A stretch of 64,000 nucleotides of DNA from an uncultured Actinomycetota bacterium (GTDB taxonomy: Bacteria > Actinomycetota > Actinomycetes > Propionibacteriales > Nocardioidaceae), in NCBI GenBank assembly GCA_963728555.1, contig CAVSKP010000005.1, positions 21,413 to 85,412 of the forward strand, in the 5' to 3' direction. Below, piece after piece: positions 17,938 through 58,404 of the stretch. The notes beneath the pieces were generated by a model that worked only from the letters and a program-made list of their open reading frames with translations, was not told where the DNA came from and searched no databases. How positions within the stretch are numbered: position 1 is the first letter of the stretch; every line of letters begins with the position of its first letter. Made by a program: the position numbers and the translations under genes.

Positions 17938-17999
17938 GGCGTGGGGATCGTTGCGCGATCGTGCTGGTCGCCCCCGGCGGCCACCCCTACGGTCACCGC

Positions 18000-27198: not shown

Positions 27199-27202
27199 CC
27201 TC

Positions 27203-30639: not shown

Positions 30640-30651
30640 GAGGATCGCGGC

Positions 30652-42192: not shown

Positions 42193-42641
42193 GCCGGGTC
42201 GGTCCGGAGCCGGCGCATGCGCTGGCGGCGCAACGTGGCGGGCAGCGTCAACACGACCCCGACCGCGATGCCGATCAGCGCGCCCACGGTGTTGGCGGCG
42301 ATGTCGCGCTCGTCGGGCACCCGGCCGGGGATCGACCGCTGGACCGTCTCGATCGCCGAGGTCATCGCGAATGCCGCGGCCGCCGCGACCCACCAGAAGC
42401 GGGTACTGACCAGCAACAGCAGGAACAGCCCGACGGGCACGAAGAGGGCGACGTTCGCCAGCTGCTCGGCGCGGTCGTCGGTGAGCCACGAGAGCTCGTC
42501 GTACCCCTGCAACCTCGCCAGCACGCGCCGCACCAGCTCGCTCGACGTGGGCGCCGCGGAGCCGGGCGTCAGCGTCACCCAGGCGACGAAGCCCAGGTAG
42601 GCGAGCGTCACGAGGCTCAGGAGCGGGTGGCGGTGCAGCAT
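42189..42641 (-). CDS. VanZ family membrane protein
   Basis: EQLANVALFVPVG, IETVQRSIPGR, DIAANTVG; own ATG at 42641. Confidence 0.88.
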   Translation of the reverse strand: MLHRHPLLSLVTLAYLGFVAWVTLTPGSAAPTSSELVRRVLARLQGYDELSWLTDDRAEQLANVALFVPVGLFLLLLVSTRFWWVAAAAAFAMTSAIETVQRSIPGRVPDERDIAANTVGALIGIAVGVVLTLPATLRRQRMRRLRTDPA

Positions 42642-42687
42642 CCGACCAGTGTGGCCAGGCGACCCAAGCCGGCGGCCGATGAGTCGG

Positions 42688-43937
42688 TCAGACGGTGGCC
42701 TCGTGCCGGGCTCGGCCGCGGCCGGCTCGGCCGCGACGACGTCCTCGGACTTCATCGACGGGCGGGCGTCGTCGGCGCGACCGAGGCCGGCGTACGCGCG
42801 CCCCATCCGGCTGACGAACTGGTACACGCCGTCCTCCTCGGGGGCCAGCGGTCCCGGGATCGCGTGCGGGCTGGTGAGCCCTCGCTGGACCGACTCGCAG
42901 GCGGCCCAGTCCTGGCGGTTGGTGAGGTCCCAGAAGTCCACGGCGTAGGACGGGTCGAAGCCTTCGCGCTCCGCCACATGGCGCGGGAAGGCCCACGAGC
43001 ACTCGACGAACGTGCGGTCGGCGGCGATCGGCCGCATCGTGTGGGTCATCACGTAGTCGGGGTGCAGGCTGATGAGCAGGTTGGGGAACGCGATGAGGTA
43101 CATCACCGTGCGCATCTCGACCTCGTTGAGACCCTCGATCGCGACACCGCCGCTGCGTCCGTCGAGCGACATGGTGTCGGCGTCCGGGACGAGATCCATC
43201 CAGCCGCCCATCCACTCGCCGACCGGCTCGAGGTTCTCCCCGCTCTGCGGCGGACTGACCCGGCACAGCTCGGGGTGGATGGAGGAGCAGTGGTAACACT
43301 CCTGGTAGTTCTCGGCGATGATCTTCCAGTTCGTCGCGAGCTCGTAGGAGTGAGACGCGACGGTGACCAGGTCCTCGGGCCGGTAGTTGGCGACGATCGC
43401 GTCGAGGTCGCCGGCGTGCTCATCGAACGACCCGGCCTCGTTGCTGGGGTCGACGAAGACCCAGCCGTGCCACTCCACGACGTTGAGCTCGGCCAGCCCG
43501 AACTGCGACTTGTCGAAGTCCTCCAGGTCGCGGAAGCCGCCGGGGGCGTTGCGGAGCGAGCCATCGAGCTTGTAGTTCCAGGCGTGGTACGGGCAGACGA
43601 TCGAGCGCTTCTGGACCGTCACGCCGCAGGGCACGAGCTCATGGCCACGGTGCCGGCAGACGTTCGCGAACGCCCGCAGCACGCCGTCCTCGCCGCGCAC
43701 CAGCAGCACGCCGCCGGCCCCGGTCTCGACGGAGGTCTGGGCACCCAGCTCGGCGAACTTCTCGCCGCGGCCCAGGCACATCCAGCCGGAGAAGATGTTG
43801 GCCTGCTCCCAGTCGTAGACCGCGGGATCGACGTACGCCCGCCGCGGCAGCATCCGCGAGGAGCCGAACGGCGCGTACGCCGCCGCCACGTCGCCCGCCG
43901 GGAGGGGAGCCGTCATGCCACGCAGTTGATTGAACAT
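42688..43937 (-). CDS. Rieske non-heme iron oxygenase, alpha subunit (GbcA/choline monooxygenase/stachydrine demethylase-like); 3' end uncertain
   Basis: NVCRHRG...CPYHAW Rieske motif; NWKIIAENYQECYHCSSIHP iron site; QDWAACE; runs in-frame into vanZ, probable true stop TGA 42688 via a 1-nt slip near 42705. Confidence 0.88.
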
Positions 43938-43947
43938 ACAGTCAATC
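43928..43947. promoter_or_regulatory. TetR (BetI-like) operator 1
   Basis: GATTGAACATACAGTCAATC. Confidence 0.75.
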
Positions 43948-44116
43948 CTAGGTCTCGCGGGTGAGTGTCGTCCAGCGTCCATCATTCCCGATGCACGGTA
44001 CTGACTCCAGAGTCAGTCTCGATCCTCGGCGGGTCTTCGACCGGTCAACGTCGGGCCACCACCAGTATCCTCGGGTCGCCCTGCTTTGAGCGCCTGATCC
44101 GATGACAGGAGCCACC

Positions 44117-45271
44117 GTGGAATTCGCCTTGACCGACGAGCAGCGCAGCATCGTCGAGGTGACCCGCACCTTCGTCGAGCGGGAGCTCTTCCCGCACGAG
44201 GAGGAGGTCGAGCGAACCGGGAAGGCACGCCCCGAGCTGATCGCCCGGATCCGCGCCAAGGCGATCGAAGCCGGGCTGTATGCCGCCAACATGCCCGAGG
44301 AGGTCGGCGGGGCGGGGCTGGACGCGGTGACGCTGGTGCTCTTCGAGAAGGAGCTGGGCAAGGCGAGCTACGCGCTGCACTACACCGGCGTCGCACGCCC
44401 CTCGAACATCCTGATGGCCGGTACGCCGGCGCAGCGCGAGCGGTACCTGCTGCCGTGCGTGCGAGGTGAGCGCACCGACTGCCTCGCCATGACCGAGCCG
44501 GGAGCCGGCTCGGACATGCGGGCCATCCGCACCCGCGCCGTACGAGACGGCGACGGGTGGACCATCCGCGGTACCAAGCACTTCATCAGCCACGCCGACG
44601 AGGCGGACTTCGTGATCCTGCTCGCCCGGACGGGGGCCGACGACGCAGGTCGGCCCGCGATGTCGACGTTCCTCGTCGACCTGGACACCCCGGGGCTGCA
44701 CGTGCACGACGGGTACCGCAACGTGTCACACCGCGGGTACACCAACTCGATCCTGGACTTCGACGACGTCCGCCTGCCCGGCGACGCCCTGCTGGGAGAG
44801 GAGGACAAAGGGCTGGAGCTGGCGGGCGAGTGGCTCGGGTCGACCCGGCTGTCGGTCGCCGCGACCTGCCTCGGGCGCGCGGAGCGAGCCCTCGGCCTGT
44901 CGACGGAGCACGCGGCGCACCGGGAGCAGTTCGGTCAGCCCATCGGCAAGTTCCAGGGGGTCGGCTTCAAGCTCGCCGACATGGCCACCGAGCTGCGGGC
45001 CGCCGAGCTGACGACGCTGTACGCCGCGTGGAAGCGGGACCAGGGCACGGCCGCCGACGCGGACATCGCGATGGCCAAGCTGAAGGCCACCGAGATGCTC
45101 GCCATGGTCGCCGACGAGGCCATCCAGATCCACGGGGGCATGGGCCTGATGGACGAGCTCCCGCTCGAGCGGATCTGGAGGGACGCGCGGATAGAGCGGA
45201 TCTGGGACGGCACGTCGGAGATCCAGAGGCACATCATCTCCCGGTCGCTGCTGCGGCCGCTGGGGGGTTGA
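44117..45271 (+). CDS. Acyl-CoA dehydrogenase (gamma-butyrobetainyl-CoA dehydrogenase-like)
   Basis: AMTEPGAGSD, GTKHFIS, REQFGQPIGKFQG, RIWDGTSEIQRHII; adjacent to caiD; AGGAG RBS before GTG 44117. Confidence 0.88.
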   Translation: MEFALTDEQRSIVEVTRTFVERELFPHEEEVERTGKARPELIARIRAKAIEAGLYAANMPEEVGGAGLDAVTLVLFEKELGKASYALHYTGVARPSNILMAGTPAQRERYLLPCVRGERTDCLAMTEPGAGSDMRAIRTRAVRDGDGWTIRGTKHFISHADEADFVILLARTGADDAGRPAMSTFLVDLDTPGLHVHDGYRNVSHRGYTNSILDFDDVRLPGDALLGEEDKGLELAGEWLGSTRLSVAATCLGRAERALGLSTEHAAHREQFGQPIGKFQGVGFKLADMATELRAAELTTLYAAWKRDQGTAADADIAMAKLKATEMLAMVADEAIQIHGGMGLMDELPLERIWRDARIERIWDGTSEIQRHIISRSLLRPLGG

Positions 45272-45274
45272 ACC

Positions 45275-46066
45275 ATGGAGAACGCCGAGGTGCTCCACCT
45301 CCGCCGCGAGGACGGCGTACTCGAGGTCACCCTCGACCGACCCAAGGCCAACGCCATCGACCTGGCCACCAGCCGTGCGATGGGCCAGGTGTTCGCGGAC
45401 TTCCGTGACGACCCCGAGCTACGGGTCGCCATCGTGCGGACCGCCGGCGACAAGTTCTTCTGCGCCGGCTGGGACCTCAAGGCCGCGGCCGCGGGCGACG
45501 CCGTCGACGGCGACTACGGCGTCGGCGGCTTCGGCGGCCTCCAGGAGCTCCCGGAGCTCAACAAGCCCGTCATCGCGGCCGTCCACGGCCTGGCGATGGG
45601 CGGCGGCTTCGAGCTGGCGCTCTCCTGCGACCTGATCTACGCCTCGGAGAGCACGCAGTTCGGGCTGCCCGAGATCAACGCGGGGACCCTCGCCGACGCC
45701 GCGTCGGTGAAGCTGCCGAAGCGGATGCCCTTCCACGTCGCCATGGACCTCCTCCTCACCGGACGCTGGATGAGCGCCACCGAAGCCGCGCGCTGGGGCC
45801 TGGTCAACGAGGTCCTCCCGAACGACGACGCCGTGCGCGCCCGCGCCTGGGAGACCGCCCGCCTGCTCGCCGCCGGCCCTCCGCTCGTCTTCGCCGCCAT
45901 CAAGGAGGTGACCCGGGTCGCCGCGTCGCTGACGTTCCAGGAGGCCATGGACCTGATCACGAGCAGCCGGCTCCGGACCGTCGCCACCCTGTACACCTCG
46001 GAGGACGAGAAGGAGGGGGCCAGGGCCTTCGCCGAGAAGCGCCCGCCCGTCTGGAAGGGCCGCTGA
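45275..46066 (+). CDS. caiD: Carnitinyl-CoA dehydratase-like crotonase
   Basis: LEVTLDRPKANAID, FRDDPELRVAI, KFFCAGWDLKAAA, FAEKRPPVWKGR closely follow the CaiD sequence as I recall it. Confidence 0.8.
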   Translation: MENAEVLHLRREDGVLEVTLDRPKANAIDLATSRAMGQVFADFRDDPELRVAIVRTAGDKFFCAGWDLKAAAAGDAVDGDYGVGGFGGLQELPELNKPVIAAVHGLAMGGGFELALSCDLIYASESTQFGLPEINAGTLADAASVKLPKRMPFHVAMDLLLTGRWMSATEAARWGLVNEVLPNDDAVRARAWETARLLAAGPPLVFAAIKEVTRVAASLTFQEAMDLITSSRLRTVATLYTSEDEKEGARAFAEKRPPVWKGR

Positions 46067-46132
46067 CGATGGACGGTCGACGTGGAGACGCGTCCTGGAG
46101 CAGCAAGCACAGGCGGAGGCGGCCCGAGCCGC

Positions 46133-47082
46133 CTAGGTGACCTCGTTCGGAGGGTTGGTTCGGGGAGCGCTGGTTGATCCGCCGCGGTCATCGGTCGGTG
46201 CGAAGGCCAGCAGGTCCGAGGTGGGCGGCACCCAGTAGTAGCTGCCGGTGAGCGGAGCGGTGAAGCGGGTGAGTGCGTCCCGCGGCCCGTCCACACCGGC
46301 CATGCTCTCCAACATCGTGTGGAGTGGCTTCTTGCTGCTGGCGAAGCCGACGAACATGGTCCCGTGGTCGCTGACCGTGCCGAAGGCCGTGTTCCGTCGC
46401 AGCACATGGCCGAAGTCGTCCTGGTCGGTCCGGGCCGCGTGGGAGGTATCAGGCTTCGGGGCGAGTTCGATGCTGTCGGTCTTGGTCCGGCCGATCACCT
46501 CCCCCTGGACGTCGTCGTCGAGGGCCCACCACGCCGCCGCATCATGGGCCCACTGCTGCAGGAGCAGCACCGAACCGCCGGCGCCGGGTGACCCCTCGGG
46601 CACCAGGGCGTAGGCGGGAGCGCTGGCGAGCGTCGGGTTCTCGGTGCCATCCTCGAAGCCGGTGAGGTCGCGGTCTCGGTGGTAGGTCGAGCCCCGCACC
46701 TCGCTGACCAAAGCAGCGAACGGCGCCAGCTTGCGTACCGCGTCGAGTGTCGCGTCGAAGACGACGTCGTACGAGGCCGCCGCGAACCAGAGCGCGAGGT
46801 CATGCTGGGTCGCGGGCATGGCGAAGCCGTCCGAACCGACCACGGCAGCGTCGAAGCCGGTCAGCCCGGTAGGCAGCGTCCCGGGCGACACGCGCGCCCA
46901 GAGCTCGGGGCGGACGCCCGCGACGAGGTTGGTGGCGCCCATGGTGGTCTCGCGCTCGGCCAGGTCGGCGAGCACTCTGACGGCGGCGACCGGATCGGCG
47001 TCGATGAGCAGATCCAGTTCGATGTACGCGTGCGAGGAGGTTCCAACAGCGAAGATGCCAGCCTGGGGGAGGACCTCGACAC
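46133..47082 (-). CDS. Dyp-type peroxidase, frameshifted in a homopolymer at 47065-47069
   Basis: RDLTGFEDGTENP, IGRTK, SHAART, LRRN; adding one C to the C5 run joins GTG 47082 (MSRSSP) to QAGIFAVGTSSHAYIELDL. Confidence 0.88.
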
Positions 47083-47154
47083 GTTCCTACCCGATCAGGC
47101 AGCCGCCTGTCCGGTCGAGAAGACCGGGGGTCTCAGATGTGGGAACCCGGGCGG

Positions 47155-47625
47155 TCAGTCGAAACACTCAGGATTGCTGACGGGGTCCGGGTTGACGGTG
47201 TTGCACACCGATTCGACTCGGCTGTCCAGTGAACTGCCGACAGCGAAGACGACGACCACCAAGGCAACGACGAGACCCGACCAGATCGTCCCGATCAGTC
47301 CAGTGACGAATCCTGCGGTTGCCATGCCGCGACCACCGAGTCGCCCGTGCGATTGGTCGATCTCGCGGGTGGCCCTTCGAGCCGTGATCATGGCGGGAAT
47401 ACCGGTGAACAGGCCGAAGAACAACAGAGAAAGGATGCCAAGCACCAGCGCGGTTGTTGCCCCGCCCGAGTTCGGCGGGATGGGGGTGACTCCGCTGGGG
47501 TATATGGCGGGCGGGTAGGCGGCTGGCGCCCTGTGCTCGGTCCATTCGGAGCCGTTCCAGTAGCGCTGCTGCGACGGGTCCTGCGGATCCGGGAACCAAC
47601 CCGCGCTCGGAGTGCTGGCGCTCAT
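47155..47625 (-). CDS. DUF2510 + DUF4190 membrane protein
   Basis: AGWFPDPQDPSQQRYWNGSEWT; ALVLGILSLL...GRGMATAGFVTG. Confidence 0.85.
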   Translation of the reverse strand: MSASTPSAGWFPDPQDPSQQRYWNGSEWTEHRAPAAYPPAIYPSGVTPIPPNSGGATTALVLGILSLLFFGLFTGIPAMITARRATREIDQSHGRLGGRGMATAGFVTGLIGTIWSGLVVALVVVVFAVGSSLDSRVESVCNTVNPDPVSNPECFD

Positions 47626-47844
47626 GCGTTGCCCTTCACTGCTGACTCCCCATGGGTGTGCTGGTCCGACATGCGATCACGTCCCTGCTCGAGTGCGCCG
47701 GTCATGGTGCGGGCGCCTGCGGCATTAGACCTCGACCGCCTCGGCGCTGTTCGAGGAACGGCAGAAAACCGGCCGAACGGTGATCGACACCGTTGCGTAG
47801 TACCTGGCTACCGATTCAGGTGAGGCCACAGCCCGGGTGAGCGT

Positions 47845-49068
47845 TCATCGGCGATGAGTGCGCGGATCCGGGTCAGCGCCCAGCGAGCGCATGGCTCGCT
47901 GTCCCATGTGGAGCAGGAAGTGGAGGCTAGCCGCCCAGTTGTCCATGGTGGTATCGATGTCGCAGCCGGCCGCCTCGGCACGCTCAGCCGGCCAGTCCTC
48001 AGAGACGGGGAAGTCGGGGCAGAGCAGGGCGACGTCGTCCACGACGAAGCACAGCATTTGGAGCGAGCCCGAAGCAGCGGCAGCGAAGCGCACGTCCGCC
48101 TCGTCCCCTCGCCATCCGAAGTCACGCAGCCCCGCCAGGTACGCGTCCGTCGCCGAGCGCTCGTGCTCGACTCCGTCGGCCGGGTCCACCGAGTCGACGC
48201 ACACGTCAAGTGCGACGTGGTGGCCGAGGTCGGCGCCGATCGGCGCCGTGCCGAAGAAGCCCCAGTCGATGACGACGGTGCGCTCACCTTTCGCAGTGCG
48301 CTCACGGAACAGGTTGCTCGCCTTGGCGTCGTGGTGTGCGACCGTGGCCGGCAGTGTGGCGAGGCGCACGCACATCTGCTCGCAAGAACTGACCACGTCG
48401 ACGAGGGCTTGGCGGCTCGACACCGGCACCCGGTCTCGGAGGAGCGGGTGGGCCCAGCAGTCGGCGTGTGCCAGGGCGTGGCCGCCGCTGAGTCCGAGGA
48501 AGGTCGAGGCCCAGCCGCTCAACCAGTCCCGAGCGGTCCACGAGAGCGCCAGGACTTCGTCCACCATCGAGGTCCCCTGGGCGGCGAAGCCGCCGAGGTC
48601 GTAGGCCATCTCGGCGAGCTCGCCGACGGACCTCGCCGGACGGTCGGTGCCCTCGTCGAGCTCCTCCAGCCACAGCCAGGCGGTCGTGTCGTCCACCTCC
48701 TCGGTGGCCCAACAGCCGACAGGACGCATGGGGTGCTCGAACCTGTCGAGCAGGCCGCAGCGACGTGCCAACACCTCGCGCTTCCAGTAGTTCCAGTCGG
48801 ACGGCTCGCGGATGTAGCCGTCGATGTCGAGCGGAGTCCCACTCAGGTCGGGCAGCATGACGACCTTGAGGATGGTGCTCCACTGCTTCTCGCGAGCTCC
48901 GCCGACGGTGGCCGTGCCCGCGACGCGATGGATGCCGGCAGTGCCCGGGTTGTACGCCGGGACGTCGAGCCATTCGCTGGTCCATGTCGTGGGCTGCGCG
49001 GCGGGATCCCCGAGGATCCGCCGGACGACCGGTGCTAGCCCCTCGGCCGTCAACAACGGAGGCTCCAT
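47845..49068 (-). CDS. Aminoglycoside-phosphotransferase / choline-kinase-fold protein
   Basis: TILKV, WKREV, HHDAKASNLF catalytic loop, IDWG. Confidence 0.75.
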   Translation of the reverse strand: MEPPLLTAEGLAPVVRRILGDPAAQPTTWTSEWLDVPAYNPGTAGIHRVAGTATVGGAREKQWSTILKVVMLPDLSGTPLDIDGYIREPSDWNYWKREVLARRCGLLDRFEHPMRPVGCWATEEVDDTTAWLWLEELDEGTDRPARSVGELAEMAYDLGGFAAQGTSMVDEVLALSWTARDWLSGWASTFLGLSGGHALAHADCWAHPLLRDRVPVSSRQALVDVVSSCEQMCVRLATLPATVAHHDAKASNLFRERTAKGERTVVIDWGFFGTAPIGADLGHHVALDVCVDSVDPADGVEHERSATDAYLAGLRDFGWRGDEADVRFAAAASGSLQMLCFVVDDVALLCPDFPVSEDWPAERAEAAGCDIDTTMDNWAASLHFLLHMGQRAMRSLGADPDPRTHRR

Positions 49069-49154
49069 GTGTCCCCCTCCATACGCGGACCGGGCCCGTT
49101 CCGGACTTTATCCGCAGGTCTGGATCCGTTGATGGGCCCCTGGCTACCGGGGAG

Positions 49155-49814
49155 TCACCCCGCCAGTAAGGCGTGCTCGGCGGGGGACAGGAACCCTCGG
49201 GCGACCGCGGCGGCTTGGAGGTGGGCGGCGCGGCGTCCCGGCTCGGGGTCGGCAGTGGCCAGGTTGGGACGGAACGCGATGCTGCGGATGTCGTCGACGC
49301 CGGCCCAGTGCAACCAGTCCTCGAAGTACGGCTGCTGGAAGTCGTTGCCGAATCCCGGGCCACGGTCGGGGCCGTAGACCGCGCCGGTGTAGATGACGGC
49401 GACCCGCTTGTTCTCCAGCAGGCCCGTGTAGCCCGCTGCGGGGTCGAAGCTGAAGATCATGCCGGGCTGGCTGATGACGTCGATGAGCTGCTTGAGGATG
49501 TAGGGCACCGACGCGTTCCACATCGGCACCGTGAAGAGGTAGTAGTCGGCGGAGTCGAACCGCTTGAAGGTCTCGTACGCGCGGCGCCATGCGGCGGCCT
49601 CGTCGCCCTCGGGGTCGGCGCCGGCGAAGACCGCCATCTTGGCGGCCGCCGCGGGCGGGCCGAACTCGGGCAACGTGCCGTCCCAGAGGTCCCAGTGCTC
49701 GACCGTGACCTCGGGGTGGATCGCGCGTAGTTCATCGAGGAACGTGGCCGCGATGGCGAGGGTCTCGGAACGTTCGCCGCGGGGCGAGGCGGAGATGTGC
49801 AACAGGGTGGTCAT
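49155..49814 (-). CDS. azoR: FMN-dependent NADH-azoreductase
   Basis: LHISASPRGERSET, TVPMWNASVPYILKQLID, FSFDPAAGYTGL. Confidence 0.9.
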   Translation of the reverse strand: MTTLLHISASPRGERSETLAIAATFLDELRAIHPEVTVEHWDLWDGTLPEFGPPAAAAKMAVFAGADPEGDEAAAWRRAYETFKRFDSADYYLFTVPMWNASVPYILKQLIDVISQPGMIFSFDPAAGYTGLLENKRVAVIYTGAVYGPDRGPGFGNDFQQPYFEDWLHWAGVDDIRSIAFRPNLATADPEPGRRAAHLQAAAVARGFLSPAEHALLAG

Positions 49815-49836
49815 CGTAGTTCCTTCTCGAGCGAGT

Positions 49837-49882
49837 TATGTGCTTACGCACATAGTTATAGCAAAGTGTGTGCGCACGCACA
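49837..49882. promoter_or_regulatory. Tandem MarR operators
   Basis: TATGTGC-TTAC-GCACATA (49837-49854) and TGTGC-GCAC-GCACA (49869-49882), centres 30 bp apart. Confidence 0.7.
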
Positions 49883-49902
49883 AGATCTGGTAGGCTTCGA
49901 GG

Positions 49903-50346
49903 GTGGCAACAGAGCTCACCGAGACGTGGGGCGCGCTGCTGAAGGTGCACGCCGCGCTGGTCCCGCGCCTGGACCGCGAGCTCCAGGACGCCCACGGTCT
50001 GCCCTTGACGTGGTACGACGTGCTGCTCGAGCTCGACGGGGCCCCCCATCGGCGGCTCACCATGGGACAGCTCGGCTCCGTCGCCTCGGTGAGCCGCACC
50101 CGCGTCAGCCGGGTCGTTGACGACCTGGTCCGGGCGGGCCTGGTGACTCGAGAGCCGAACCCGCACGACGGTCGATCGGCTTTCGCAGCACTGACCCCGG
50201 CAGGTCGGACGGCATTGCGCAAGTCGGCGCCGACCTACCTCGCCGCCGTCCACCGTGAGTTCGCCGACCACCTGACACCGCACGAGAGCGAGGTCCTGGC
50301 GGGAGCTCTTCGCAAGGTGCTGGCCGCGAGCGAGCCCAGGTCGTGA
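49903..50346 (+). CDS. MarR family regulator
   Basis: LTWYDVLLEL, LTMGQL, SRTRVSRVVDDL, DGRSAFAALT. Confidence 0.9.
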   Translation: MATELTETWGALLKVHAALVPRLDRELQDAHGLPLTWYDVLLELDGAPHRRLTMGQLGSVASVSRTRVSRVVDDLVRAGLVTREPNPHDGRSAFAALTPAGRTALRKSAPTYLAAVHREFADHLTPHESEVLAGALRKVLAASEPRS

Positions 50347-50357
50347 CCCGCGCCCCG

Positions 50358-50457
50358 GGCCGGCCTACGTCTCGCCGGCGAACGAGCCGATCGACTCGTG
50401 CTGACCCGATCGCTTGCCGAGCCAGCGGTACAGCAGGAAGCCCAGCGCGACGGCGAG
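50358..50457. repeat. Direct repeat, left copy (duplicate of the permease 3' end)
   Basis: 50365-50457 is identical to 51752-51844 over 93 bp; extends to 100 bp with one mismatch. Confidence 0.95.
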
Positions 50458-50505
50458 ATGCCGGCGAATGCGGGTGCACCTACTTCCGCAGAACTGGCAA
50501 TGCGG

Positions 50506-51210
50506 CTAGGCGCTCACCCTGGGCCGGCTGGCGGGGTGAGCCACGTCGGCGAACAGCGGGTGCAGCCCGAACCAGTCGGCGAAGGAGCGGGTGAGCGCCC
50601 GCTGACCCTCCAGCTGGACCGCGTGGCTCTTCACGGCCGACGCGAGCGGGACGTCCCCCATCCACACCGCAGTGAGCGTCTTCGCGTCGCTGGTGACCGT
50701 CACGTCGACTCCGAACCCGGGATCGGTCAGGCACAGGTCCTTCTCGGGAAGCACCAACCAGAAGTAGCGCAGCTTTTCGGGAGCTCCCGCGAAGCGGAAG
50801 TGGATGACAGTGCGACCCGGCGGCAAGGCGTCCGTCTTGACGGTCGTGCGAACCCACCACATGAGCAGGCCGGTGTCTGGTGACTCCTCGAAGATGGGGC
50901 GGCGCAGCCAGCGCTCGCTCCAGATGCCGATCTGGGCGAGGACCGGCCCGAGTTCTTGTCCCGCGGAAGTCAGGTGGTACTCGCTCCCTCGTGCGTACGT
51001 CAGCGCTCGCCGCTCGATGATTCCCGCACGTTCGAGCTCGCGGAGGCGTTTGCTCAACAGCGAAGAGGACATCAGCGGTACACCGCGCTGGATGTCGTTG
51101 AAACGACGGCTCCCGGTTAGCGCCAGTTCACGAAGGACCAGTGGGGTCCAGCGCTCGGTGATCACTTCGGAGGCTTGGGCGATGGGACAAAACTGGCCAT
51201 AACCGGGCAT
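50506..51210 (-). CDS. HxlR-family winged-helix regulator with C-terminal SCP2-like domain
   Basis: YGQFCPIAQASEVITERWTPLVLREL, RRFNDIQRGVPLMSSSLLSKRLRELE, DLCLTDPG. Confidence 0.88.
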   Translation of the reverse strand: MPGYGQFCPIAQASEVITERWTPLVLRELALTGSRRFNDIQRGVPLMSSSLLSKRLRELERAGIIERRALTYARGSEYHLTSAGQELGPVLAQIGIWSERWLRRPIFEESPDTGLLMWWVRTTVKTDALPPGRTVIHFRFAGAPEKLRYFWLVLPEKDLCLTDPGFGVDVTVTSDAKTLTAVWMGDVPLASAVKSHAVQLEGQRALTRSFADWFGLHPLFADVAHPASRPRVSA

Positions 51211-51242
51211 GTGCCCAATCTCCTCGTGCCGTTCACCACCGG

Positions 51243-51263
51243 CAACTGCAGATTCTGCAGTTG
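51243..51263. promoter_or_regulatory. HxlR-type operator
   Basis: Perfect CAACTGCAG-ATT-CTGCAGTTG inverted repeat between divergent genes. Confidence 0.7.
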
Positions 51264-51336
51264 ATCCGGGACGCGGTCAGCGGTGCCATCGAAACAGGCA
51301 ACGGCACCCGGTCGGGCCAGACGAAAGGAAGAGCTC

Positions 51337-51582
51337 ATGTACATCCTCACGATCCACACAATCTCGGACCCGCAAGCATTCTGGAGCGGACAGCTCAACC
51401 TGCCGAAGGGCACCGAGCTGCCCATCGTGGTTCCCAGCGAGGACGGCAAGCGCGGCGTCTGCCTCTTCAAGTCCGGCTCGGTCGAGACGGTGCGAAGTGT
51501 CGTCGACGGCGCGACCAAAGCAGTCAGCCGCAACGAGTTCTACGCAATCAACGAAAGCGGCGCGCTCGGGCTGCCTGCCTAG
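51337..51582 (+). CDS. Small hypothetical protein (81 aa, possibly ferredoxin-like alpha/beta)
   Basis: GAAAGGA RBS; MYILTIHTISDPQAFW...GVCLFKSGSVETVRSVVD. Confidence 0.7.
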   Translation: MYILTIHTISDPQAFWSGQLNLPKGTELPIVVPSEDGKRGVCLFKSGSVETVRSVVDGATKAVSRNEFYAINESGALGLPA

Positions 51583-51744
51583 GGAGTCGGCCACAGCTCG
51601 TTGGATTTCCGCCGACCTCACCGCGCGCACGCCACCGCTTCAGACCGCGTGCACGCCGACGATCACGAGCCTGGGGCCGGGCGTCACCTTCCTCCGCCCG
51701 GTCTCGGCTTCTACCACCTGACCAGCAGACCGACACCGCTTCCT

Positions 51745-51844
51745 GGCCGGGCTACGTCTCGCCGGCGAACGAGCCGATCGACTCGTGCTGACCCGATCGC
51801 TTGCCGAGCCAGCGGTACAGCAGGAAGCCCAGCGCGACGGCGAG
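51745..51844. repeat. Direct repeat, right copy (functional 3' end of the permease gene)
   Basis: Matches 50358-50457. Confidence 0.95.
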
Positions 51845-52627
51845 CATGGCGGCCACCAGCATCAGCGTGGCGAGCGCGTTGAGTGCCGGGGTGGGTGCCG
51901 CGCGGGCGGTGTTGTAGATCTTCACCGAGGTCGGCTCGGTGGACGCGTCGCCGGAGAGGTAGCGGACGATGACGAAGTCGTCGATGACGTCGGCGAACAC
52001 GAGTACGGCGCTCGCGACGATGGCGGGCACCAGCATCGGCAGGATCACGCGGCGTTGGGCCGCGAGCGGTGAGGCGCCGAGGTCCATCGCTGCCTCCTCG
52101 AGCTGCGACCCGATCGTGGCGAGCCGGGCTCGGACGAGGATCGCGGGATAGGACAGCTGGAAGGTGACCAGGCCGACCACCTGCGACGTCGTGCCGAGCG
52201 TGAACGGCAGGGCCAGGTTGGTGACCACGAGGAGCAACGCCACCGCGAGCAGCGTCTCGGGCAGCACGAACGAGAGCAGCAGCATCGAGTTGGCGGTGTT
52301 GGAGAGCTTGCCGCGCCAGCGGTGCAGACCGATCGCGAGCGCGACGCCGAGAGGGACGCAGACCAGGGTGGTGAGCACCCCGAGTCGAAGGGTCTGGATC
52401 AGGGCCGTCTGCAGCGTGTCGTCGTGCCAGACCGAGCGTTCCGGGTCGCCGTAGTACCACCGCAGCGAGAAGCCTTGCCAGCTGGTCCGCGACCGACCGT
52501 CGTTGAAGGAGAACGCGGCGGCGATCAGGACTGGGAGGAGCGACCAGAGCAGGTAGCCGATGGTGACGGCGGCGAGCAGGCGCGGCTTGCGCCACGGGTC
52601 ACGCCACCACGCGGTGATCGAGCTCAT
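51752..52627 (-). CDS. potC: Polyamine-type ABC permease (PotC-like)
   Basis: FSFND, FSLRWY, LEEAAMDLGASP EAA loop, SVKIY. Confidence 0.85.
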   Translation of the reverse strand: MSSITAWWRDPWRKPRLLAAVTIGYLLWSLLPVLIAAAFSFNDGRSRTSWQGFSLRWYYGDPERSVWHDDTLQTALIQTLRLGVLTTLVCVPLGVALAIGLHRWRGKLSNTANSMLLLSFVLPETLLAVALLLVVTNLALPFTLGTTSQVVGLVTFQLSYPAILVRARLATIGSQLEEAAMDLGASPLAAQRRVILPMLVPAIVASAVLVFADVIDDFVIVRYLSGDASTEPTSVKIYNTARAAPTPALNALATLMLVAAMLAVALGFLLYRWLGKRSGQHESIGSFAGET

Positions 52628-53577
52628 GTGACGGCTCCATCCGAGCGGGACACGGTGCGGACGTAGTAGAGCATCGGCAGCAGCGAGACGATGAGCACCA
52701 GCAGCACGAACGCTCCGGCCTGGCCGGTCTGCCCGGGGGTGAGCACGGTGTTGTTGATGAGGTTGCCGACCATCGAGGTGCTCGGAGAACCCGACAACAG
52801 GTCGCTGGTGAAGTAGTCACCCAGCATCGGGAGGCAGGTGAGCAGCACGCTGGCGACCACGACCGGGCGCGACATCGGCCAGGTCACCCGACGGAACGCC
52901 GAGAACCGGTTGGCGCCGAGGTCACGCGCGCCCTCGATGAGGTCGGAGGGCAGCCGGTCGAGGCCGGCGTACAAGGGGATGATCATGTACGGCACGTACC
53001 CGTAGACCAGCCCGAGGATCACCACCACCGACTTGCCCGACAGCCACTCGGTGTCGCCGGGGAAGACCCCACCGAGCGAGATGACCCTGTTGACGATGCC
53101 GTCGTTGGCCAGCAGGTTCACCCACGCCAGCATGCGCATCATGTAGCTGATCCAGAACGGCGCGATCAGCAGCGTGAGCAGCAGGCCCTTCCAGCGGCCC
53201 GAGAGCCGCGCGACGTAGTAGGCGATCGGGAACGCGATCAGCAGGCACAGCACGCTGGCGGTGAACACGTAGACCGCCGTCCGCACGAGGGCCGGGCCGA
53301 AGATGCCGTCGGCACCGACGATGTGGGTGAGCACGTAGATCGGCTGGTCCGACGACCACAGGACCGGGTTCCAGACAGGGATGACCGTGCGGAAGACCGG
53401 GTCGACGCCGCCGAAGACGACCGCCAGTACGACGTACAGCGGCGCGATGAAGAACAGCAGCAGCCAGGCTATGCCCGGCATCGCGAGCAGCGGCCCGAGC
53501 AGCCTGCCTCGCGGACGTGCGCGCGAGGCGGGTGGTGGCGGTCGCTCCTCGACGTCCGGGAGCGGTGCAGCCGTCAC
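52624..53577 (-). CDS. potB: Polyamine-type ABC permease (PotB-like)
   Basis: APFWISYMMRMLAW, YGYVPYMIIPLY, LIEGARDLGA. Confidence 0.85.
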   Translation of the reverse strand: MTAAPLPDVEERPPPPASRARPRGRLLGPLLAMPGIAWLLLFFIAPLYVVLAVVFGGVDPVFRTVIPVWNPVLWSSDQPIYVLTHIVGADGIFGPALVRTAVYVFTASVLCLLIAFPIAYYVARLSGRWKGLLLTLLIAPFWISYMMRMLAWVNLLANDGIVNRVISLGGVFPGDTEWLSGKSVVVILGLVYGYVPYMIIPLYAGLDRLPSDLIEGARDLGANRFSAFRRVTWPMSRPVVVASVLLTCLPMLGDYFTSDLLSGSPSTSMVGNLINNTVLTPGQTGQAGAFVLLVLIVSLLPMLYYVRTVSRSDGAVT

Positions 53578-54851
53578 GCGCCCGCCTTGAACTGCTGCCA
53601 GACCTGGTGCCACGCGGCGTCGTTCTCGACAGTCAGCTCGAGCAGGCGGTAGGCGACGTCGAACCATTCCTCGCGCACGGCGGCGGTGGCGAGGTTCTCG
53701 GGAAGGTACCCGTCGGCGACCAGCTTCTCGGTGTCGAGCACGTTCTGCGGGGGCTGGTAACCGATGTAGCCGAAGTTCTTCAGCGAGTTCTTCTCGTCGA
53801 GCATGTGGTCGAGGAACAGGTGCGCGAGCACCGGGCTGTTGCCACCGCTGAGCACCATCATCAGGTCGTTGTCGACCAGGCCCTTGCCGTCCTCCGGGAA
53901 CCAGTAGCCCAGGACGTCGACCGACGTGCCCTTCGGCAGGTAGTACTGGGCGTTCACGATGTCGCCGGACCACATCTGGCTGACACCGAGCTGGCCGGCC
54001 GGGATGTCGTTGTACATCGACACGGTCACCTTCGGCTTGACGGCCTGGCTCAGCTCGGTCAGCGCCTGCTGGATCGTGTCGAGGTCCGCGGGCTTGTCGC
54101 TGTTCACGTCGCTGATGCCGGCGCGCAGGCCGACCATGGCCATGGCGGTGTGCCAGTCGTCGATGATGCCGACCATGCCCCGGTAGTCGGGGTTCCAGAG
54201 GGCGTCGTACGGGTTGGGCATCCCGGCGATGTCCTCGGTCACCTTGTCGGTGCGCCAGCCGACCCCGGTCGTGTACACGCTGTAGGGCACCGAGTAGTGC
54301 GCCTCACCGTCGTACCAGGGGCTCTGGAACGTCGACCACACGTTGCCCAGGTTGCCGATGTAGGAGTGGTTCAGCGGACGCACGAGCTTCGCCGTCACCA
54401 GGCGGCCGATCTGGTCGTAGCTCGGGAAGTAGATGTCGTAGGGCACGGCGCCGGTGCGGATCTTGGTGATCGCCTCGTCGGTGTCGTTGAAGGTGGACAC
54501 CTTCACGTCGACGCCGTACTTCGCCTCGAACGACTTCACCACGGCCGGCCCGATGTAGTCGGCGTAGTTGTAGAGCAGCAGGGGGCCCTTCTCGGGCGGC
54601 ATCCCGTCCGCGATCGGCTGGTTGTCGTCGGAGATCGGCCAGGTCACGGGGTTGTCCGGCGAGGCGATCTGCAACGGCTTGCCGTCACCGGTGCCGCCGC
54701 CGGAGCCGGTGGGCGAGTCGGCGCAGGCCTGGAGAAGGGCACTCAGGGCGGGGACCGAGATGCCCAGCAGGGCGGCGTTGCGCAGCAGCGCACGCCTGTC
54801 GAACCGCACCCCCTCCGACATCCTCTCCGGGGGCCCGCCGGGTCTCTCCAT
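53574..54851 (-). CDS. potD: Polyamine-type substrate-binding protein (PotD/PotF-like), Tat lipoprotein
   Basis: FDRRALLR twin-Arg plus LLQAC; YNYADYI, YSVPY, WSGD, FPEDG..VDND. Confidence 0.85.
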   Translation of the reverse strand: MERPGGPPERMSEGVRFDRRALLRNAALLGISVPALSALLQACADSPTGSGGGTGDGKPLQIASPDNPVTWPISDDNQPIADGMPPEKGPLLLYNYADYIGPAVVKSFEAKYGVDVKVSTFNDTDEAITKIRTGAVPYDIYFPSYDQIGRLVTAKLVRPLNHSYIGNLGNVWSTFQSPWYDGEAHYSVPYSVYTTGVGWRTDKVTEDIAGMPNPYDALWNPDYRGMVGIIDDWHTAMAMVGLRAGISDVNSDKPADLDTIQQALTELSQAVKPKVTVSMYNDIPAGQLGVSQMWSGDIVNAQYYLPKGTSVDVLGYWFPEDGKGLVDNDLMMVLSGGNSPVLAHLFLDHMLDEKNSLKNFGYIGYQPPQNVLDTEKLVADGYLPENLATAAVREEWFDVAYRLLELTVENDAAWHQVWQQFKAGA

Positions 54852-54893
54852 GCCACCTCCGCAGCTCCATCCGAATTCTGACACGCTCACACA

Positions 54894-54913
54894 GACTGAA
54901 CATTCAGTCAATC
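54894..54913. promoter_or_regulatory. TetR operator 2
   Basis: GACTGAACATTCAGTCAATC. Confidence 0.75.
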
Positions 54914-54981
54914 GCGGTGAGATCCTGGACCTCGGCCGGAGATCCGGCCGGCACCCTTGTGGCCCTCCCCGAGCGTCCCTA

Positions 54982-55001
54982 AACTGAACGCTCAGTCAAA
55001 C
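54982..55001. promoter_or_regulatory. TetR operator 3
   Basis: AACTGAACGCTCAGTCAAAC, just upstream of the GAGGAG RBS of the aminotransferase. Confidence 0.72.
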
Positions 55002-55013
55002 GAGGAGAGCCCC

Positions 55014-56409
55014 GTGACCACCTCCGTCACCACTGACGAACCCATTGGCGAAACCATCGACACCCTGCTCGAGTCCGAGTCCGAGGCGTTCGTGCGGCGC
55101 CAGCCACGCAGCACCGCCATGATCGCCGAGGCCGGCGCCGTTCTCGCCGGCGGCGCTACTTCCAACTGGCAGATCGCCCAGCCGCAGGCCGTGTGGATGA
55201 GCCACGGCCAGGGGCCCCACGTCTGGGACGTGGACGGCAACGAGTACGTCGACATGCACGGCGGGTACGGCGCCGCCATCGCCGGCCACGCCCACCCCGC
55301 CATCGTGGAGGCCGTGACCCGTCAGGTCTCACGCGGTACGCACTTCGCCCAGCCCACCGAGGACGCCATCTGGGTGGCGACCGAGCTCGCCCGCCGCTTC
55401 GGCCTGCCCCAGTGGCGGTTCGCCAACTCGGGCACCGAGGCCACCATGGACGCGATCCACCTGATGCGGGCGCTGAAGGGCCGCGACCTCATCATCAAGG
55501 TGGAGGGTTGCTACCACGGCCACCACGACTCGGTGCAGGTCTCGGTGCTGCCCGAGCCCGAGGAGGTCGGCCCGGCCGACGCGCCGTACCGCGTCCCCGG
55601 CAACACCGGCATCCCGCAGGCGATCATGGACCTGATCGTCGTGGTGCCCTTCAACGACCTGGGCGCCGTCGAGCGCGCCCTGGCCGAGCACCGCGGACAG
55701 ATCGCGGGGATGATCCTCGAGCCGATCATGATGAACGCCGGCATCATCCCGCCGGACGACGGCTACCTCGCCGGTCTCAAGGAGCTCCTCCACGCCGAGG
55801 ACTGCTTCCTCACCTTCGACGAGGTCAAGACCGGCTTCACGACCGGACCCGCGGGGGCTACCGGGAGGTACGGCGTCACGCCGGACATCGTCTGCCTCGC
55901 CAAGGCCCTCGGTGGCGGAATCTCCGTCGCCGCGCTGGGTGGTACCGACGAAGTCATGTCCGCCATCGCCGACGGGAGGTACGAGCAGGTCGGCACGTTC
56001 AACGGCAACCCGCTGGCGATGGCCGCCGCACGCGCGAACCTCAGCCAGGTCCTCAACGAGGAGGGGTACGCCCGCCTCGATGCCCTGGCCGCGCGTGCCA
56101 GGGAGGGCTTCGAGCGGCACATCGCCGACAACGGGCTCGCCGTGGCACGTGGTCAGCGTCGGCGCCAAGGGATGCGTGGCGTTCACGGGCGAGCCCGTCC
56201 GCAACTACCGCGACTTCCTCGAGGTCGACGACCGCTGGGGTCACCTGCATTGGCTGATGCAGCACAATGGCGGGGTGTTCCTGCCGCCGTGGGGCAAGGT
56301 CGAGCAGTGGCTGCTGTCCGTGCAGCACACCGAGGACGACGTCGACCTTCTCGTCTCCAACTTCGGTCGGCTGGCCGAGGTGGCCGGTCAGACCTCTGGC
56401 GCCGCCTGA
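55014..56409 (+). CDS. Class III PLP aminotransferase (HemL/GSA-AM-like paralog), frameshift near 56136-56141
   Basis: WDVDGNEYVD, SGTEATM, GCYHGH, ILEP, FDEVKTGF, LAKALGGG, GTFNGNP; C-terminus continues in the 55912-56409 frame. Confidence 0.88.
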
Positions 56410-57539
56410 TGGCGGGCGGCGCCCTGCGCCTCACCTCGCTGACGAAGTCGTTCGGCGACGTCGTCGCCGTCGACGGCATCGACCTCGACCTGCCGGCCGG
56501 CGAGTTCTGCTCGCTGCTCGGTGCGTCGGGGTGCGGCAAGACCACGACCCTGCGGATGATCGCGGGATTCGAGAGGCCGGACTCCGGCCAGATCCTGCTC
56601 GACGGCAAGGACATGGCGCAGGAGCCGCCGCACCGGCGCCCGGTCAACACCGTGTTCCAGAGCTACGCCCTGTTCCCGCTGATGACGGTCCGGGAGAACG
56701 TCGCCTTCGGGCTGCGCTACCAGAACGTCGACAAGGCCACCATCGACCGCCGGGTCTCGGAGGCCCTGGACGTCGCCCGCATCGGCGAGCTCGCCAAGCG
56801 CCGCCCCGCCCAGCTGTCCGGTGGTCAGCAGCAGCGCGTCGCCCTGGCCCGTGCCCTGGTGCTCAACCCGAAGGTGCTGTTGCTCGACGAGCCGCTCGGG
56901 GCCCTGGACGCCCAGCTCCGCAAGTACCTCCAGCTCCAGCTGCGCCAGCTCCAGCGCGACCTCGGCATCACCTTCGTCTACGTCACCCACGACCAGGAGG
57001 AGGCCCTGACGATGAGTGACCGCATCGCGGTCATCGCCGAGGGCAAGGTCGAGCAGGTCGGCGCACCGGAGGAGATCTACTCACGTCCCGCGACGGCGTA
57101 CGTCGCCGGGTTCCTCGGGTCCGCCAACATCTTCGACGCCGACGTCACCGACGTCTCGTCGAGCACCGCCACCTGCACGTCCTTGGGCCGCACCATCGCC
57201 GCCGAGGTCACCGGCGACTGCCCGCGCGGCGAGGCCGCGATCGTGGTCCGCCCCGAGAGGATCGCCGTCGACGCCGAGTCCGCGCCCGGCCCGACCGGCC
57301 ACAACCGCCTGACCGGAACGGTCCTCGACGTCGTGTACCTCGGCGCCTCGACCCAGGTGCGCGTGGACGTCGGGGACGACCACGTCTTGCTCGTGCAGGT
57401 CGCCAACCAGGCCGGCCCCCGCTCTTTCACGGCCACCCCCGGCGAGCGCGTCGCCTGCTGGTTCTCTCCCACTGCCGTCCAGGTACTGCGCCGGAGCGAG
57501 GCGAAGCTGCCGGACCCGGTCGAGGTCGAGATCGGGTAG
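56409..57539 (+). CDS. potA: Polyamine-type ABC ATPase (PotA-like)
   Basis: GASGCGKTT, VFQSYALFP, LSGGQQQR, LLDEP, YVTHDQEEA, TOBE C-terminus. Confidence 0.9.
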   Translation: MAGGALRLTSLTKSFGDVVAVDGIDLDLPAGEFCSLLGASGCGKTTTLRMIAGFERPDSGQILLDGKDMAQEPPHRRPVNTVFQSYALFPLMTVRENVAFGLRYQNVDKATIDRRVSEALDVARIGELAKRRPAQLSGGQQQRVALARALVLNPKVLLLDEPLGALDAQLRKYLQLQLRQLQRDLGITFVYVTHDQEEALTMSDRIAVIAEGKVEQVGAPEEIYSRPATAYVAGFLGSANIFDADVTDVSSSTATCTSLGRTIAAEVTGDCPRGEAAIVVRPERIAVDAESAPGPTGHNRLTGTVLDVVYLGASTQVRVDVGDDHVLLVQVANQAGPRSFTATPGERVACWFSPTAVQVLRRSEAKLPDPVEVEIG

Positions 57540-57549
57540 CGGCCGGGGG

Positions 57550-57633
57550 TCACCGCCTAGGCGGTGAGTGAGTGTTGGTTCCGAACGGTCGAACCAACAC
57601 TCAGCCACCGCGGCCCCGCCGAAACCAACACTG
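57550..57633. terminator. Palindrome/hairpin cluster between convergent genes
   Basis: TCACCGCCTAGGCGGTGA perfect palindrome; TGAGTGTTGGTTC/GAACCAACACTCA stem; third AACCAACACT copy. Confidence 0.55.
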
Positions 57634-57656
57634 ACGCACCGCTGCCCGGCGTTACG

Positions 57657-58316
57657 TCAGGCCTTGGACTTCTTGCGGTTCTTGACGCGGCGCGGGCCGG
57701 GCGAGAGGCCGAGGCGCTGCTCGGCGTACTCCATCGCGATGTCGTGGGCGACGTCGGAGGTGAGCTCGGGGTCGTCGAGGGCGACCTGGGTGGAAAGGCC
57801 GTCGAGGACGACGGTGAACATCAAGGCGAAGCGACGCAGGTCGATGCCGGCGTCGACGTCGCCGGCCTCCTGGCCCTCGCGCACGATCCGCTCGACGAGG
57901 TCGCGCCAGCGGCTGTCGAGCTCGACGCGGGCCTCGCGTACCTCGGGGTGTCGCAGCGCCGTCGACCACAGGTCCAGCCACAGACCCCACGAGCCGGTCA
58001 CCTCTCCGGGGAGCTGCGGCACGCAGGACCACTCCACCAGCATCGAGAGCCGGCGGCGGAAGTCCTTCTCGTCGTCGAGCAGCTTGGCGGCGGCGTCGTA
58101 GTAGGTCTCCTCGGAGAACCGGAGCGCGTCGACGAGCAGCCGGTCGCGGGTGCCGAAGTAGTAGATGACCAGGCCGGAGCTGGTGCCGGCGCGCTTGGCG
58201 ACATCGGCGATCCGGGTGTCGCCGTACCCGCGCTCGCTGATCAGCTCCGCAGCCGCCTGGAGCATTGCCCGGCGGCGCGCCTCGTTGCCCTCGGTCTGCG
58301 GCGCTGCTTCGGCCAT
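57657..58316 (-). CDS. TetR regulator, BetI-like
   Basis: TRIADVAKRAGTSSGLVIYYFGTRD HTH; WLDLW C-terminal domain; divergent from the oxidoreductase operon. Confidence 0.9.
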   Translation of the reverse strand: MAEAAPQTEGNEARRRAMLQAAAELISERGYGDTRIADVAKRAGTSSGLVIYYFGTRDRLLVDALRFSEETYYDAAAKLLDDEKDFRRRLSMLVEWSCVPQLPGEVTGSWGLWLDLWSTALRHPEVREARVELDSRWRDLVERIVREGQEAGDVDAGIDLRRFALMFTVVLDGLSTQVALDDPELTSDVAHDIAMEYAEQRLGLSPGPRRVKNRKKSKA

Positions 58317-58384
58317 GACGGTCGCGTCTCCTCCTCGCCCGGTGACCGGTGCGGCCCCTTGCCACGGACGCTATCACCTCGTTA

Positions 58385-58404
58385 GATTGAACAGTCAGTC
58401 AAAC
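58385..58404. promoter_or_regulatory. TetR operator 4
   Basis: GATTGAACAGTCAGTCAAAC. Confidence 0.75.

Follow-up and report, generated by a model that had tools for sequence, protein, structure and literature searches.

Catabolic clusters controlled by KstR, KstR2 and BkaR follow a common logic, in which one TetR-family regulator recognises a palindrome of ~14–16 bp at several promoters, and operators of this type, which are conserved across mycobacteria, were first predicted by comparative genomics. For BetI, another member of the family, the footprinted box is ATTGACG*CGTCAAT, i.e. two 5-bp arms separated by a 4-bp spacer (PMC12442346). Here we analyse a stretch of 64,000 nucleotides (contig CAVSKP010000005.1 of assembly GCA_963728555.1, positions 21,413 to 85,412; hereafter the window, with its own numbering) from an uncultured actinobacterium of the Nocardioidaceae, in which a short palindromic element is present in four copies near a gene for a BetI-like TetR protein (57657..58316, minus strand). 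Very probably these four sites are operators of this locally encoded regulator, which is predicted to bind all of them.

Predicted operator sites in the window and their common core

The degenerate 20-mer pattern RAYTGAACNNNCAGTCAAWC, proposed as a consensus in an initial annotation of this DNA, was used for exact and mismatch scans of the window. Exactly four matches were registered, at positions 43928, 54894, 54982 and 58385, all on the plus strand, while 100 dinucleotide-preserving shuffles contained none, which confirms the four copies reported in that annotation. Even with up to three mismatches allowed, the same four sites remained the only ones in the window (the shuffle mean being 0.18), and a position weight matrix (PWM) built from them scored the rest of the window below approximately half of the true-site value, the only exceptions being off-register matches to these four sites. 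The attribution of the copies to divergent promoter regions also stood, as all four are intergenic and lie between divergently oriented genes.

Site 1 (43928..43947, core 43928-43943 GATTGAACATACAGTC) is found 11 bp upstream of the ATG of a Rieske oxygenase gene (43916, minus strand) and ~170 bp from the start of a gene for an acyl-CoA dehydrogenase (ACAD1). Site 2 (54894..54913, core GACTGAACATTCAGTC), in which the 6-bp arms are perfect, occupies the promoter side of a gene for a substrate-binding protein (SBP), 42 bp upstream of its ATG (54851, minus strand), while site 3 (54982..55001, core AACTGAACGCTCAGTC) belongs to the promoter of the aminotransferase-PotA unit and stands 12 bp upstream of the aminotransferase GTG (55014). 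Site 4 (58385..58404, core GATTGAACAGTCAGTC) is placed in the divergent promoter region of tetR and of an oxidoreductase gene, at a distance of 68 bp from the ATG of the former (58316, minus strand) and 50 bp from that of the latter (58455).

Conservation across genera is limited to the first 16–17 nt of the 20-mer (GAYTGAAYNNNCAGTCA). Its 3′ AAWC tail is kept only within Nocardioides, and at the Rieske site this tail is a part of the −10-like TAGGAT on the opposite strand. Since the information content drops to approximately zero a few bases to the right of CAGTCA, the conserved element is, as judged from the alignment, the 16-bp imperfect palindrome GAYTGA-N4-TCAGTC (for instance, GACTGAACGCTCAGTC) rather than the full 20-mer. 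Thus the pseudo-palindrome noticed earlier is real as an imperfect dyad, but its register has to be shifted: the right arm is TCAGT at positions 11–15 and not TCAAT at positions 15–19. The same shift applies to the supposed resemblance to BetI boxes, for which ATTGA had been paired, out of register, with a TCAAT from the non-conserved tail. Only in the corrected register is there a resemblance, and a partial one, with the same arm length and spacing as in the footprinted box and one different base in the right arm (A(T/C)TGA-N4-(T/A)CAGT here versus ATTGA-N4-TCAAT). Sites 1 and 4 have ATTGA as their left arm; for the right arm only (T/A)CAGT is found, and in that register never TCAAT.

With AAC following the left arm the core is asymmetric, and it is found in one strand orientation at all promoters of a locus, genes pointing both ways, which is true for the four sites of the window and for nearly all sites of the related loci described below. 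Inherited synteny is probably behind this uniformity, which may also point to asymmetric binding.

Conservation in related loci and position at promoters

Using an alignment of 18 TetR homologues, 80 genomic loci (L001-L080) with 10-kb flanks were gathered on the basis of TetR homology only (58–92% identity), giving 1.57 Mb in total, which was scanned with the PWM and mapped for genes by tblastn. The set comprises Nocardioides (66–92% identity of TetR), Mycobacterium/Mycolicibacterium species and metagenome-assembled genomes (MAGs; 58–62%) and one Jatrophihabitans MAG. A site was registered upstream of tetR in 73 of the 80 loci, ~45–100 bp away, as a palindromic dyad overlapping predicted −10/−35 hexamers of the regulator's own upstream region. 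Seventy loci have it between the aminotransferase and SBP genes, 60 upstream of the Rieske gene and 28 in the region between a DAO-family oxidase gene and a second acyl-CoA dehydrogenase gene (ACAD2), and essentially no strong sites were detected outside these four promoter classes. In most loci one site between the aminotransferase and SBP genes stands for both directions; a second one, as in the window, was also found in L005 and L006.

The layout of the locus is conserved. The FAD oxidoreductase, CoA ligase and ACAD2 genes diverge from tetR across one site, the aminotransferase and PotA genes diverge across another from the genes for SBP and two permeases, and the Rieske gene follows in the direction of the permeases, preceded by a site of its own. 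From 203 unique instances the consensus taGatTGAAca.tCAGTCA was obtained, with near-maximal information content over TGAA....CAGTCA, while the remainder of each intergenic region has diverged. Mycobacteria possess an extra divergon, in which ACAD2, thus having its own site, faces genes for a DAO-family oxidase (SoxB/ThiO-like) and a Cupin_3 protein; the extra operator is CATAGACTGAACGCTCAGTCAAG (L045, 4695-6289, and about 28 other mycobacterial loci). Neither the window nor the Nocardioides loci contain this pair of genes.

The same association was found starting from the motif. An exact scan of metagenome contigs with GAYTGAACNNNCAGTCAA gave, among the matches listed, 48 of 120 with orthologues of TetR, oxidoreductase, aminotransferase, ACAD2, DAO or SBP within 1.5 kb, and all these 48 contigs have a GC content of at least 0.65. 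The other listed matches fall in unrelated contigs, mostly of low or medium GC, and are taken as chance occurrences because only 15 bases are specified in a collection of such size. The 48 positive contigs include lineages with a TetR only 35–55% identical to that of the window, which still carry GACTGAAC(A/G)TTCAGTC between tetR and the oxidoreductase gene. On this comparative evidence the motif is a deeply conserved cis-element, tied specifically and almost universally to orthologues of the 57657-58316 protein. The proposal of the initial annotation that it unites otherwise unrelated genes was upheld at the level of a predicted regulon, since the same promoters (Rieske; SBP-permeases; aminotransferase-PotA; oxidoreductase-CoA ligase-ACAD) are marked in ~70 genomes. 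An origin of the sites from a repeat or a mobile element was ruled out, as they are found only at orthologous promoter positions and have no flanking repeat structure.

Several other palindromes and repeats were registered in these regions. At 44000-44017 stands ACTGACTCCAGAGTCAGT, a perfect palindrome of 18 bp in which the operator arms ACTGA/TCAGT recur at a spacing of 8 bp instead of 4. It is located 72 nt from the Rieske site, as it also is in the Nocardioides loci L003 (17089-17106), L005, L006 and L010, and could be an auxiliary operator or a site of another factor. L009 (~1470 in window orientation) and L016 (~924) carry a different palindrome (GATTGAACAACCGTTCAACC / GATTGAACAGTTATTCAATC) before a gene for a protein starting with MSLDF..., which may be an operator of a related BetI-like regulator. 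In L011, represented by one MAG, the stretch that precedes the Rieske promoter (~3790-3940 in window orientation) consists of tandem repeats of ~37 nt (…gtcgacgaagcgccgcctcgcgctcc…).

Promoter hexamers were assigned as consensus matches conserved across genomes in an alignment anchored on the sites, and a strict sigma-70 scan was made besides. The latter predicted TTGCCA-18-TAGATT at 58359-58388 in the tetR/oxidoreductase region, with the −10 hexamer TAGATT (58383-58388) overlapping the first bases of site 4. In the cross-genome alignment the oxidoreductase, aminotransferase and ACAD2 genes are each preceded, with constant spacing, by a cTTGyc −35 element and a TAGAYT/TAAACT −10 element, and the operator begins within the latter. 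For the aminotransferase-PotA unit these are TTGTGG (54957-54962) and TAAACT (54980-54985), separated by a 17-nt spacer in a layout kept across loci, and site 3 overlaps the −10 hexamer. The putative Rieske promoter is TGGACG-18-TAGGAT (43974->43945, minus strand; −10 element TAGGAT at 43950->43945), so placed that the operator lies over the expected transcription start, while for tetR a conserved putative extended −10 element TGATAGCGT (58376->58368, minus strand) puts site 4 over the −35 region. Relative to the transcribed gene, the orientation of the core at the Rieske promoter is reversed compared with the other operons, which argues for a dyad protein-binding site rather than for a directional promoter or RNA element.

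The candidate regulator and alternative explanations

The protein encoded at 57657..58316 has 219 aa and combines a TetR_N helix-turn-helix (HTH) domain (Pfam PF00440, 48.2 bits at a cut-off of 24) with the BetI-type C-terminal ligand domain TetR_C_6 (PF13977, 74.9 bits at a cut-off of 27). BetI is also its best NCBIfam match, yet the scores are far below both equivalog cut-offs (TIGR03384 / NF001978; 79.3 versus 201.3 bits and 71.5 versus 118 bits), and there is no betA, betB or betT nearby, neither the window nor the examined loci having revealed a choline dehydrogenase or a betaine-aldehyde dehydrogenase. An orthologue of BetI was thereby ruled out, and, in line with the earlier description, the regulator is by its profile matches BetI-like, not BetI.

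The AlphaFold2 model of the protein is all-helical, with nine helices and a mean pLDDT of 84, and its top Foldseek matches are all TetR proteins. The closest named homologues come from Nocardioides MAGs, and homologues are abundant. The closest solved structure is a TetR protein of Saccharomonospora viridis (PDB 4ich, 4kwa, 4nel and 4jnn; 30% identity, TM 0.83, E ~1e-23). Its ligands in the crystals are choline, benzamidine and a third one, named incompletely ('N,N-dimethylmet...', probably a methylamine). The segment SWGLWLDLW (W110, W113 and W117), nearly invariant among the 18 homologues, aligns with EWSVWLQVW of that protein, so that the spacing W-x2-W-x3-W is conserved. This segment agrees with an aromatic pocket in which a cationic amine could bind, and by analogy quaternary or N-methyl amines appear to be reasonable effector candidates. 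Wherever the motif is kept, the recognition-helix region (TRIADVAKRAG.SS.LVIYYFGTRDRLL) shows almost no variation, and even in the 35–55%-identical lineages it closely resembles that of the window protein (TRIADVAERAGTSPALVIYYFKTKDQLL versus TRIADVAKRAGTSSGLVIYYFGTRDRLL). A weak association was noticed at the tetR site between SS(G/A)L or SPAL in the protein and GATTGA or GACTGA in the DNA, respectively.

Based on this data one can propose how the system may operate. A TetR dimer would sit on each 16-bp palindrome, covering the −10 element and the transcription start at the oxidoreductase-CoA ligase-ACAD, aminotransferase-PotA and Rieske promoters, as well as the −35 region of tetR and probably that of the SBP-permease operon. 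Since each site overlaps either the −10/start or the −35 region, RNA polymerase would be blocked at five transcription units, including tetR itself, which would thus be autoregulated. The repressor would leave the DNA when a small cationic effector enters the aromatic pocket of its C-terminal domain. This effector would most likely be the substrate of the pathway or a quaternary or tertiary amine related to it, and the release would turn on uptake by a Pot-type ABC transporter and catabolism by a Group V Rieske oxygenase, a class-III aminotransferase, an FAD oxidoreductase, an ADP-forming CoA ligase and an acyl-CoA dehydrogenase. If the sites are operators of this protein, repression relieved by a ligand can be expected with good confidence, while the chances that the effector is a quaternary or tertiary amine are about even. 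That this particular protein binds the sites and acts as a repressor, not as an activator, is what we infer from these observations, as are the class of effector and the substrate.

Several points weigh against this scheme. Neither binding, nor expression, nor transcription-start experiments were found for the source organism, which is probably a soil Nocardioides, or for any orthologue, and among sequencing runs the window sequence is present in soil metagenome DNA only and in no RNA-seq run. The promoter hexamers are assigned on consensus matches alone, and the strict sigma-70 scan predicted no promoter in the other two intergenic regions. Covariation between HTH residues and operator bases is uninformative, both being nearly invariant. 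The class of effector is deduced from a structure with 30% identity and from the enzyme content of the cluster, and the ligands in the S. viridis crystals may be crystallisation additives.

Among other explanations, it is improbable that the TetR protein binds these sites as an activator or dual regulator of the LuxR/HapR type, or that its effector strengthens the binding. Some TetR proteins do activate transcription, BetI2 of Ruegeria pomeroyi provides an example of effector-tuned affinities, and for E. coli BetI choline reportedly stimulates complex formation. However, catabolic TetR regulators are overwhelmingly repressors, and at three promoters the sites overlap the predicted −10 element and the transcription start, i.e. 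occupy the classical position of a repressor.

A genuine regulatory site bound by some factor encoded elsewhere, with the adjacent TetR recognising another sequence, is hardly to be expected either. It is favoured by the presence of other regulators, namely an HxlR protein (50506-51210) in the window and a second TetR nearby in L003. However, only the 57657-58316 TetR is syntenic with the motif in all lineages, the motif preceding tetR in 73 of 80 loci, while the HxlR gene belongs to an insertion specific for the window and is absent from the other loci, and the geometry of the palindrome agrees with BetI-type operators of TetR proteins. Finally, that the conserved sequence is the promoter itself or an element of the 5′-untranslated region (an alternative sigma site or an mRNA hairpin) is suggested by the −10-like hexamers (TAGAYT/TAAACT) of its left flank and by the short hairpin that the palindrome could form at transcript 5′ ends, but is very improbable, given that conservation with dyad symmetry runs at least 12 nt past the −10 element, that the element is reversed at the Rieske gene and lies on the −35 side of the tetR promoter, and that the differences between its arms are not compensatory (in the Rieske site, A at position 11 is opposite to A at position 6).

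Genes behind the sites, predicted pathway and comparison with known systems

The genes of the window were assigned by Pfam and NCBIfam profiles, and for none of the cluster enzymes was an equivalog-level NCBIfam assignment obtained. The first operon facing tetR begins with a gene for a CrtI/CrtO-like FAD-dependent oxidoreductase of 554 aa (58455..60119, plus strand), syntenic in nearly all loci, followed by genes for an ADP-forming acyl-CoA synthetase with CoA_binding_2, Succ_CoA_lig and ATP-grasp_5 domains (60089..62170, plus strand) and, as the last one, for the acyl-CoA dehydrogenase ACAD2 (62167..63342, plus strand).

The unit behind site 3 appears in the window as one open reading frame (ORF) of 841 aa (55014-57539), which would represent an aminotransferase-PotA fusion. 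This protein was ruled out as an artefact of a 1-nt insertion at ~56138. After residue ~373 the frame gives Arg-rich nonsense, while the conserved C-terminus of the aminotransferase continues in the +1 frame; in Nocardioides islandensis the aminotransferase gene is intact, and contigs from two independent soil runs, one of them 99% identical, lack one base at 56138. Removal of the insertion leaves two genes, for a class-III aminotransferase of the glutamate semialdehyde (GSA) aminomutase / beta-transaminase clade (55014..56409, plus strand, corrected) and for a PotA-type ABC ATPase (56409..57539, plus strand; TIGR01187), the stop codon of the former (56407-56409) overlapping the ATG of the latter (56409) as TGATG. 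Another long ORF of the window (16722-19415, 897 aa), which joins PALP (pyridoxal phosphate-dependent) and Peptidase_M1 domains, could be one more fusion produced by a frameshift.

On the minus strand, the PotD/F-like SBP gene (53574-54851) is followed by genes for two PotB/C-like ABC permeases (52624-53973, with a true start later than that of the ORF, and 51752-52627). Together with the ATPase, which passes the potA subfamily profile TIGR01187 with 387 bits at a cut-off of 355.6, these proteins have the make-up of a PotABCD-type transporter, and the nearest structures of SBP are PotD/PotF and SpuD/E-type proteins. The PotB-, PotC- and PotD/F-like matches are below equivalog cut-offs.

The Rieske oxygenase, with Rieske and Ring_hydroxyl_A domains, is encoded by an ORF (42189-43916, minus strand) that reads in frame into a VanZ-like protein with its own Met (MLHRHPLL...). 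At the junction, near 42700, N. islandensis (L003) has a stop codon, so that the read-through in the window is either a loss of this codon or an assembly error. The oxygenase itself, an alpha subunit of ~400 aa (42717-43916), has Stc2 and CntA as the nearest structures and GbcA as the best NCBIfam match (180 bits versus a cut-off of 670 bits). A bridging Glu and a Cys-x-x-Cys beside the histidines of the mononuclear iron are a feature of Group V oxygenases acting on quaternary ammonium compounds (PMC10952381). The sequence marks of this group are present in the protein, namely the CxH...CxxH cluster (C87-R-H...C108-P-Y-H) and, in E206-C207-Y-H209-C210-S-S-I-H214, the bridging Glu and the Cys-x-x-Cys adjacent to the iron histidines (E-C-x-H-C-x3-H). 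A reductase partner was looked for within the conserved cluster only and was not recognised there.

In the 60 other loci the Rieske gene with its site directly follows the second permease, with gaps of 60–800 bp, while in the window they are separated by ~8 kb (~44100-51700), which is inserted relative to these loci. The insertion carries genes for ACAD1 (44117-45271) and a caiD-like enoyl-CoA hydratase (45275-46066) on the plus strand and, on the minus strand, for a DyP peroxidase (46133-46975), an APH-like kinase (47845-49068), a flavodoxin-like protein (49155-49814) and the HxlR regulator mentioned above. Because of this arrangement the ACAD-caiD pair (44117-46066) was ruled out as a conserved member of the regulon. 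Site 1, initially placed in a promoter region shared by the Rieske and ACAD-caiD genes, is by synteny a site of the Rieske gene, conserved together with it, while regulation of ACAD-caiD from a distance of ~170 bp is possible but unsupported. The best NCBIfam match of the hydratase is crotonobetainyl-CoA hydratase (302 bits at a cut-off of 500). Another region of the window (26035-32819) is occupied by an unrelated sugar-catabolic cluster with a RhaA-like isomerase, a class II aldolase-SDR fusion, an FGGY kinase and LutABC-like proteins, and contains no operator sites.

The most economical reading of this gene content is that the cluster encodes a pathway, so far uncharacterised, whose substrate is a quaternary or N-methylated amine. 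One may speculate about a route of the gamma-butyrobetaine/carnitine type, which fits the CoA ligase, the acyl-CoA dehydrogenase, the CntA-like Group V Rieske protein and the caiD-like hydratase of the window. Only tentatively can it be suggested that the operator marks an undescribed pathway of quaternary-ammonium amine catabolism, widely conserved in soil Actinobacteria including many environmental mycobacteria, with, for example, a trimethylated diamine or a compound of the gamma-butyrobetaine type as substrate. Besides uptake of the Pot type, such a pathway would include transamination, activation with CoA, dehydrogenation of the acyl-CoA and C-N cleavage or demethylation by the Group V Rieske enzyme.

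The motif joins into one testable regulon, conserved from Nocardioides to Mycobacterium, genes that carry such generic annotations as 'aromatic ring-hydroxylating dioxygenase', 'phytoene desaturase family', 'acetate-CoA ligase', 'aspartate aminotransferase family' and 'spermidine/putrescine transporter'. What results is an exactly defined operator with a candidate repressor, for which there are a defined class of effectors to screen and culturable type strains with an orthologue, such as Nocardioides islandensis KCTC 19275 or Mycolicibacterium chlorophenolicum DSM 43826. Should the substrate be found, a quaternary-amine pathway would be added to actinobacterial metabolism, possibly with a new soil source of methylamines, and a new ligand-responsive TetR/operator pair would become available. 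If the tentatively suggested pathway is real, trimethylamine or methylamines could be formed in soil along this so far unrecognised route, and its TetR would be a ready-made sensor for the substrate.

Literature searches revealed no description of the regulator, of the motif or of the pathway, and no characterised orthologue. An orthologue of this TetR from M. tuberculosis is absent among the recovered loci, and the 2015 survey of mycobacterial TetR motifs, which covered only regulators conserved in M. tuberculosis, did not include it. The S. viridis protein, though the closest solved relative, is at 30% identity no orthologue; it comes from structural genomics, and no published operator or regulon was found for it. 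The Rieske protein shares E-C-x-H-C-x3-H with its nearest solved or curated relatives, CntA (carnitine monooxygenase), Stc2 (stachydrine demethylase) and GbcA, but is not an orthologue of any characterised member. With BetI the predicted system has in common the TetR_N domain and the BetI-type C-terminus, the operator placed over promoter hexamers, the divergent autoregulated arrangement and, plausibly, a cationic amine as effector, while differing from it in the number of promoters, four or five, in the unrelated enzymes and in the actinobacterial host. From KstR, KstR2 and BkaR, whose logic it shares, it differs in the motif, the class of ligand and the pathway. As a predicted multi-operator catabolic TetR regulon it is mechanistically an ordinary TetR switch.

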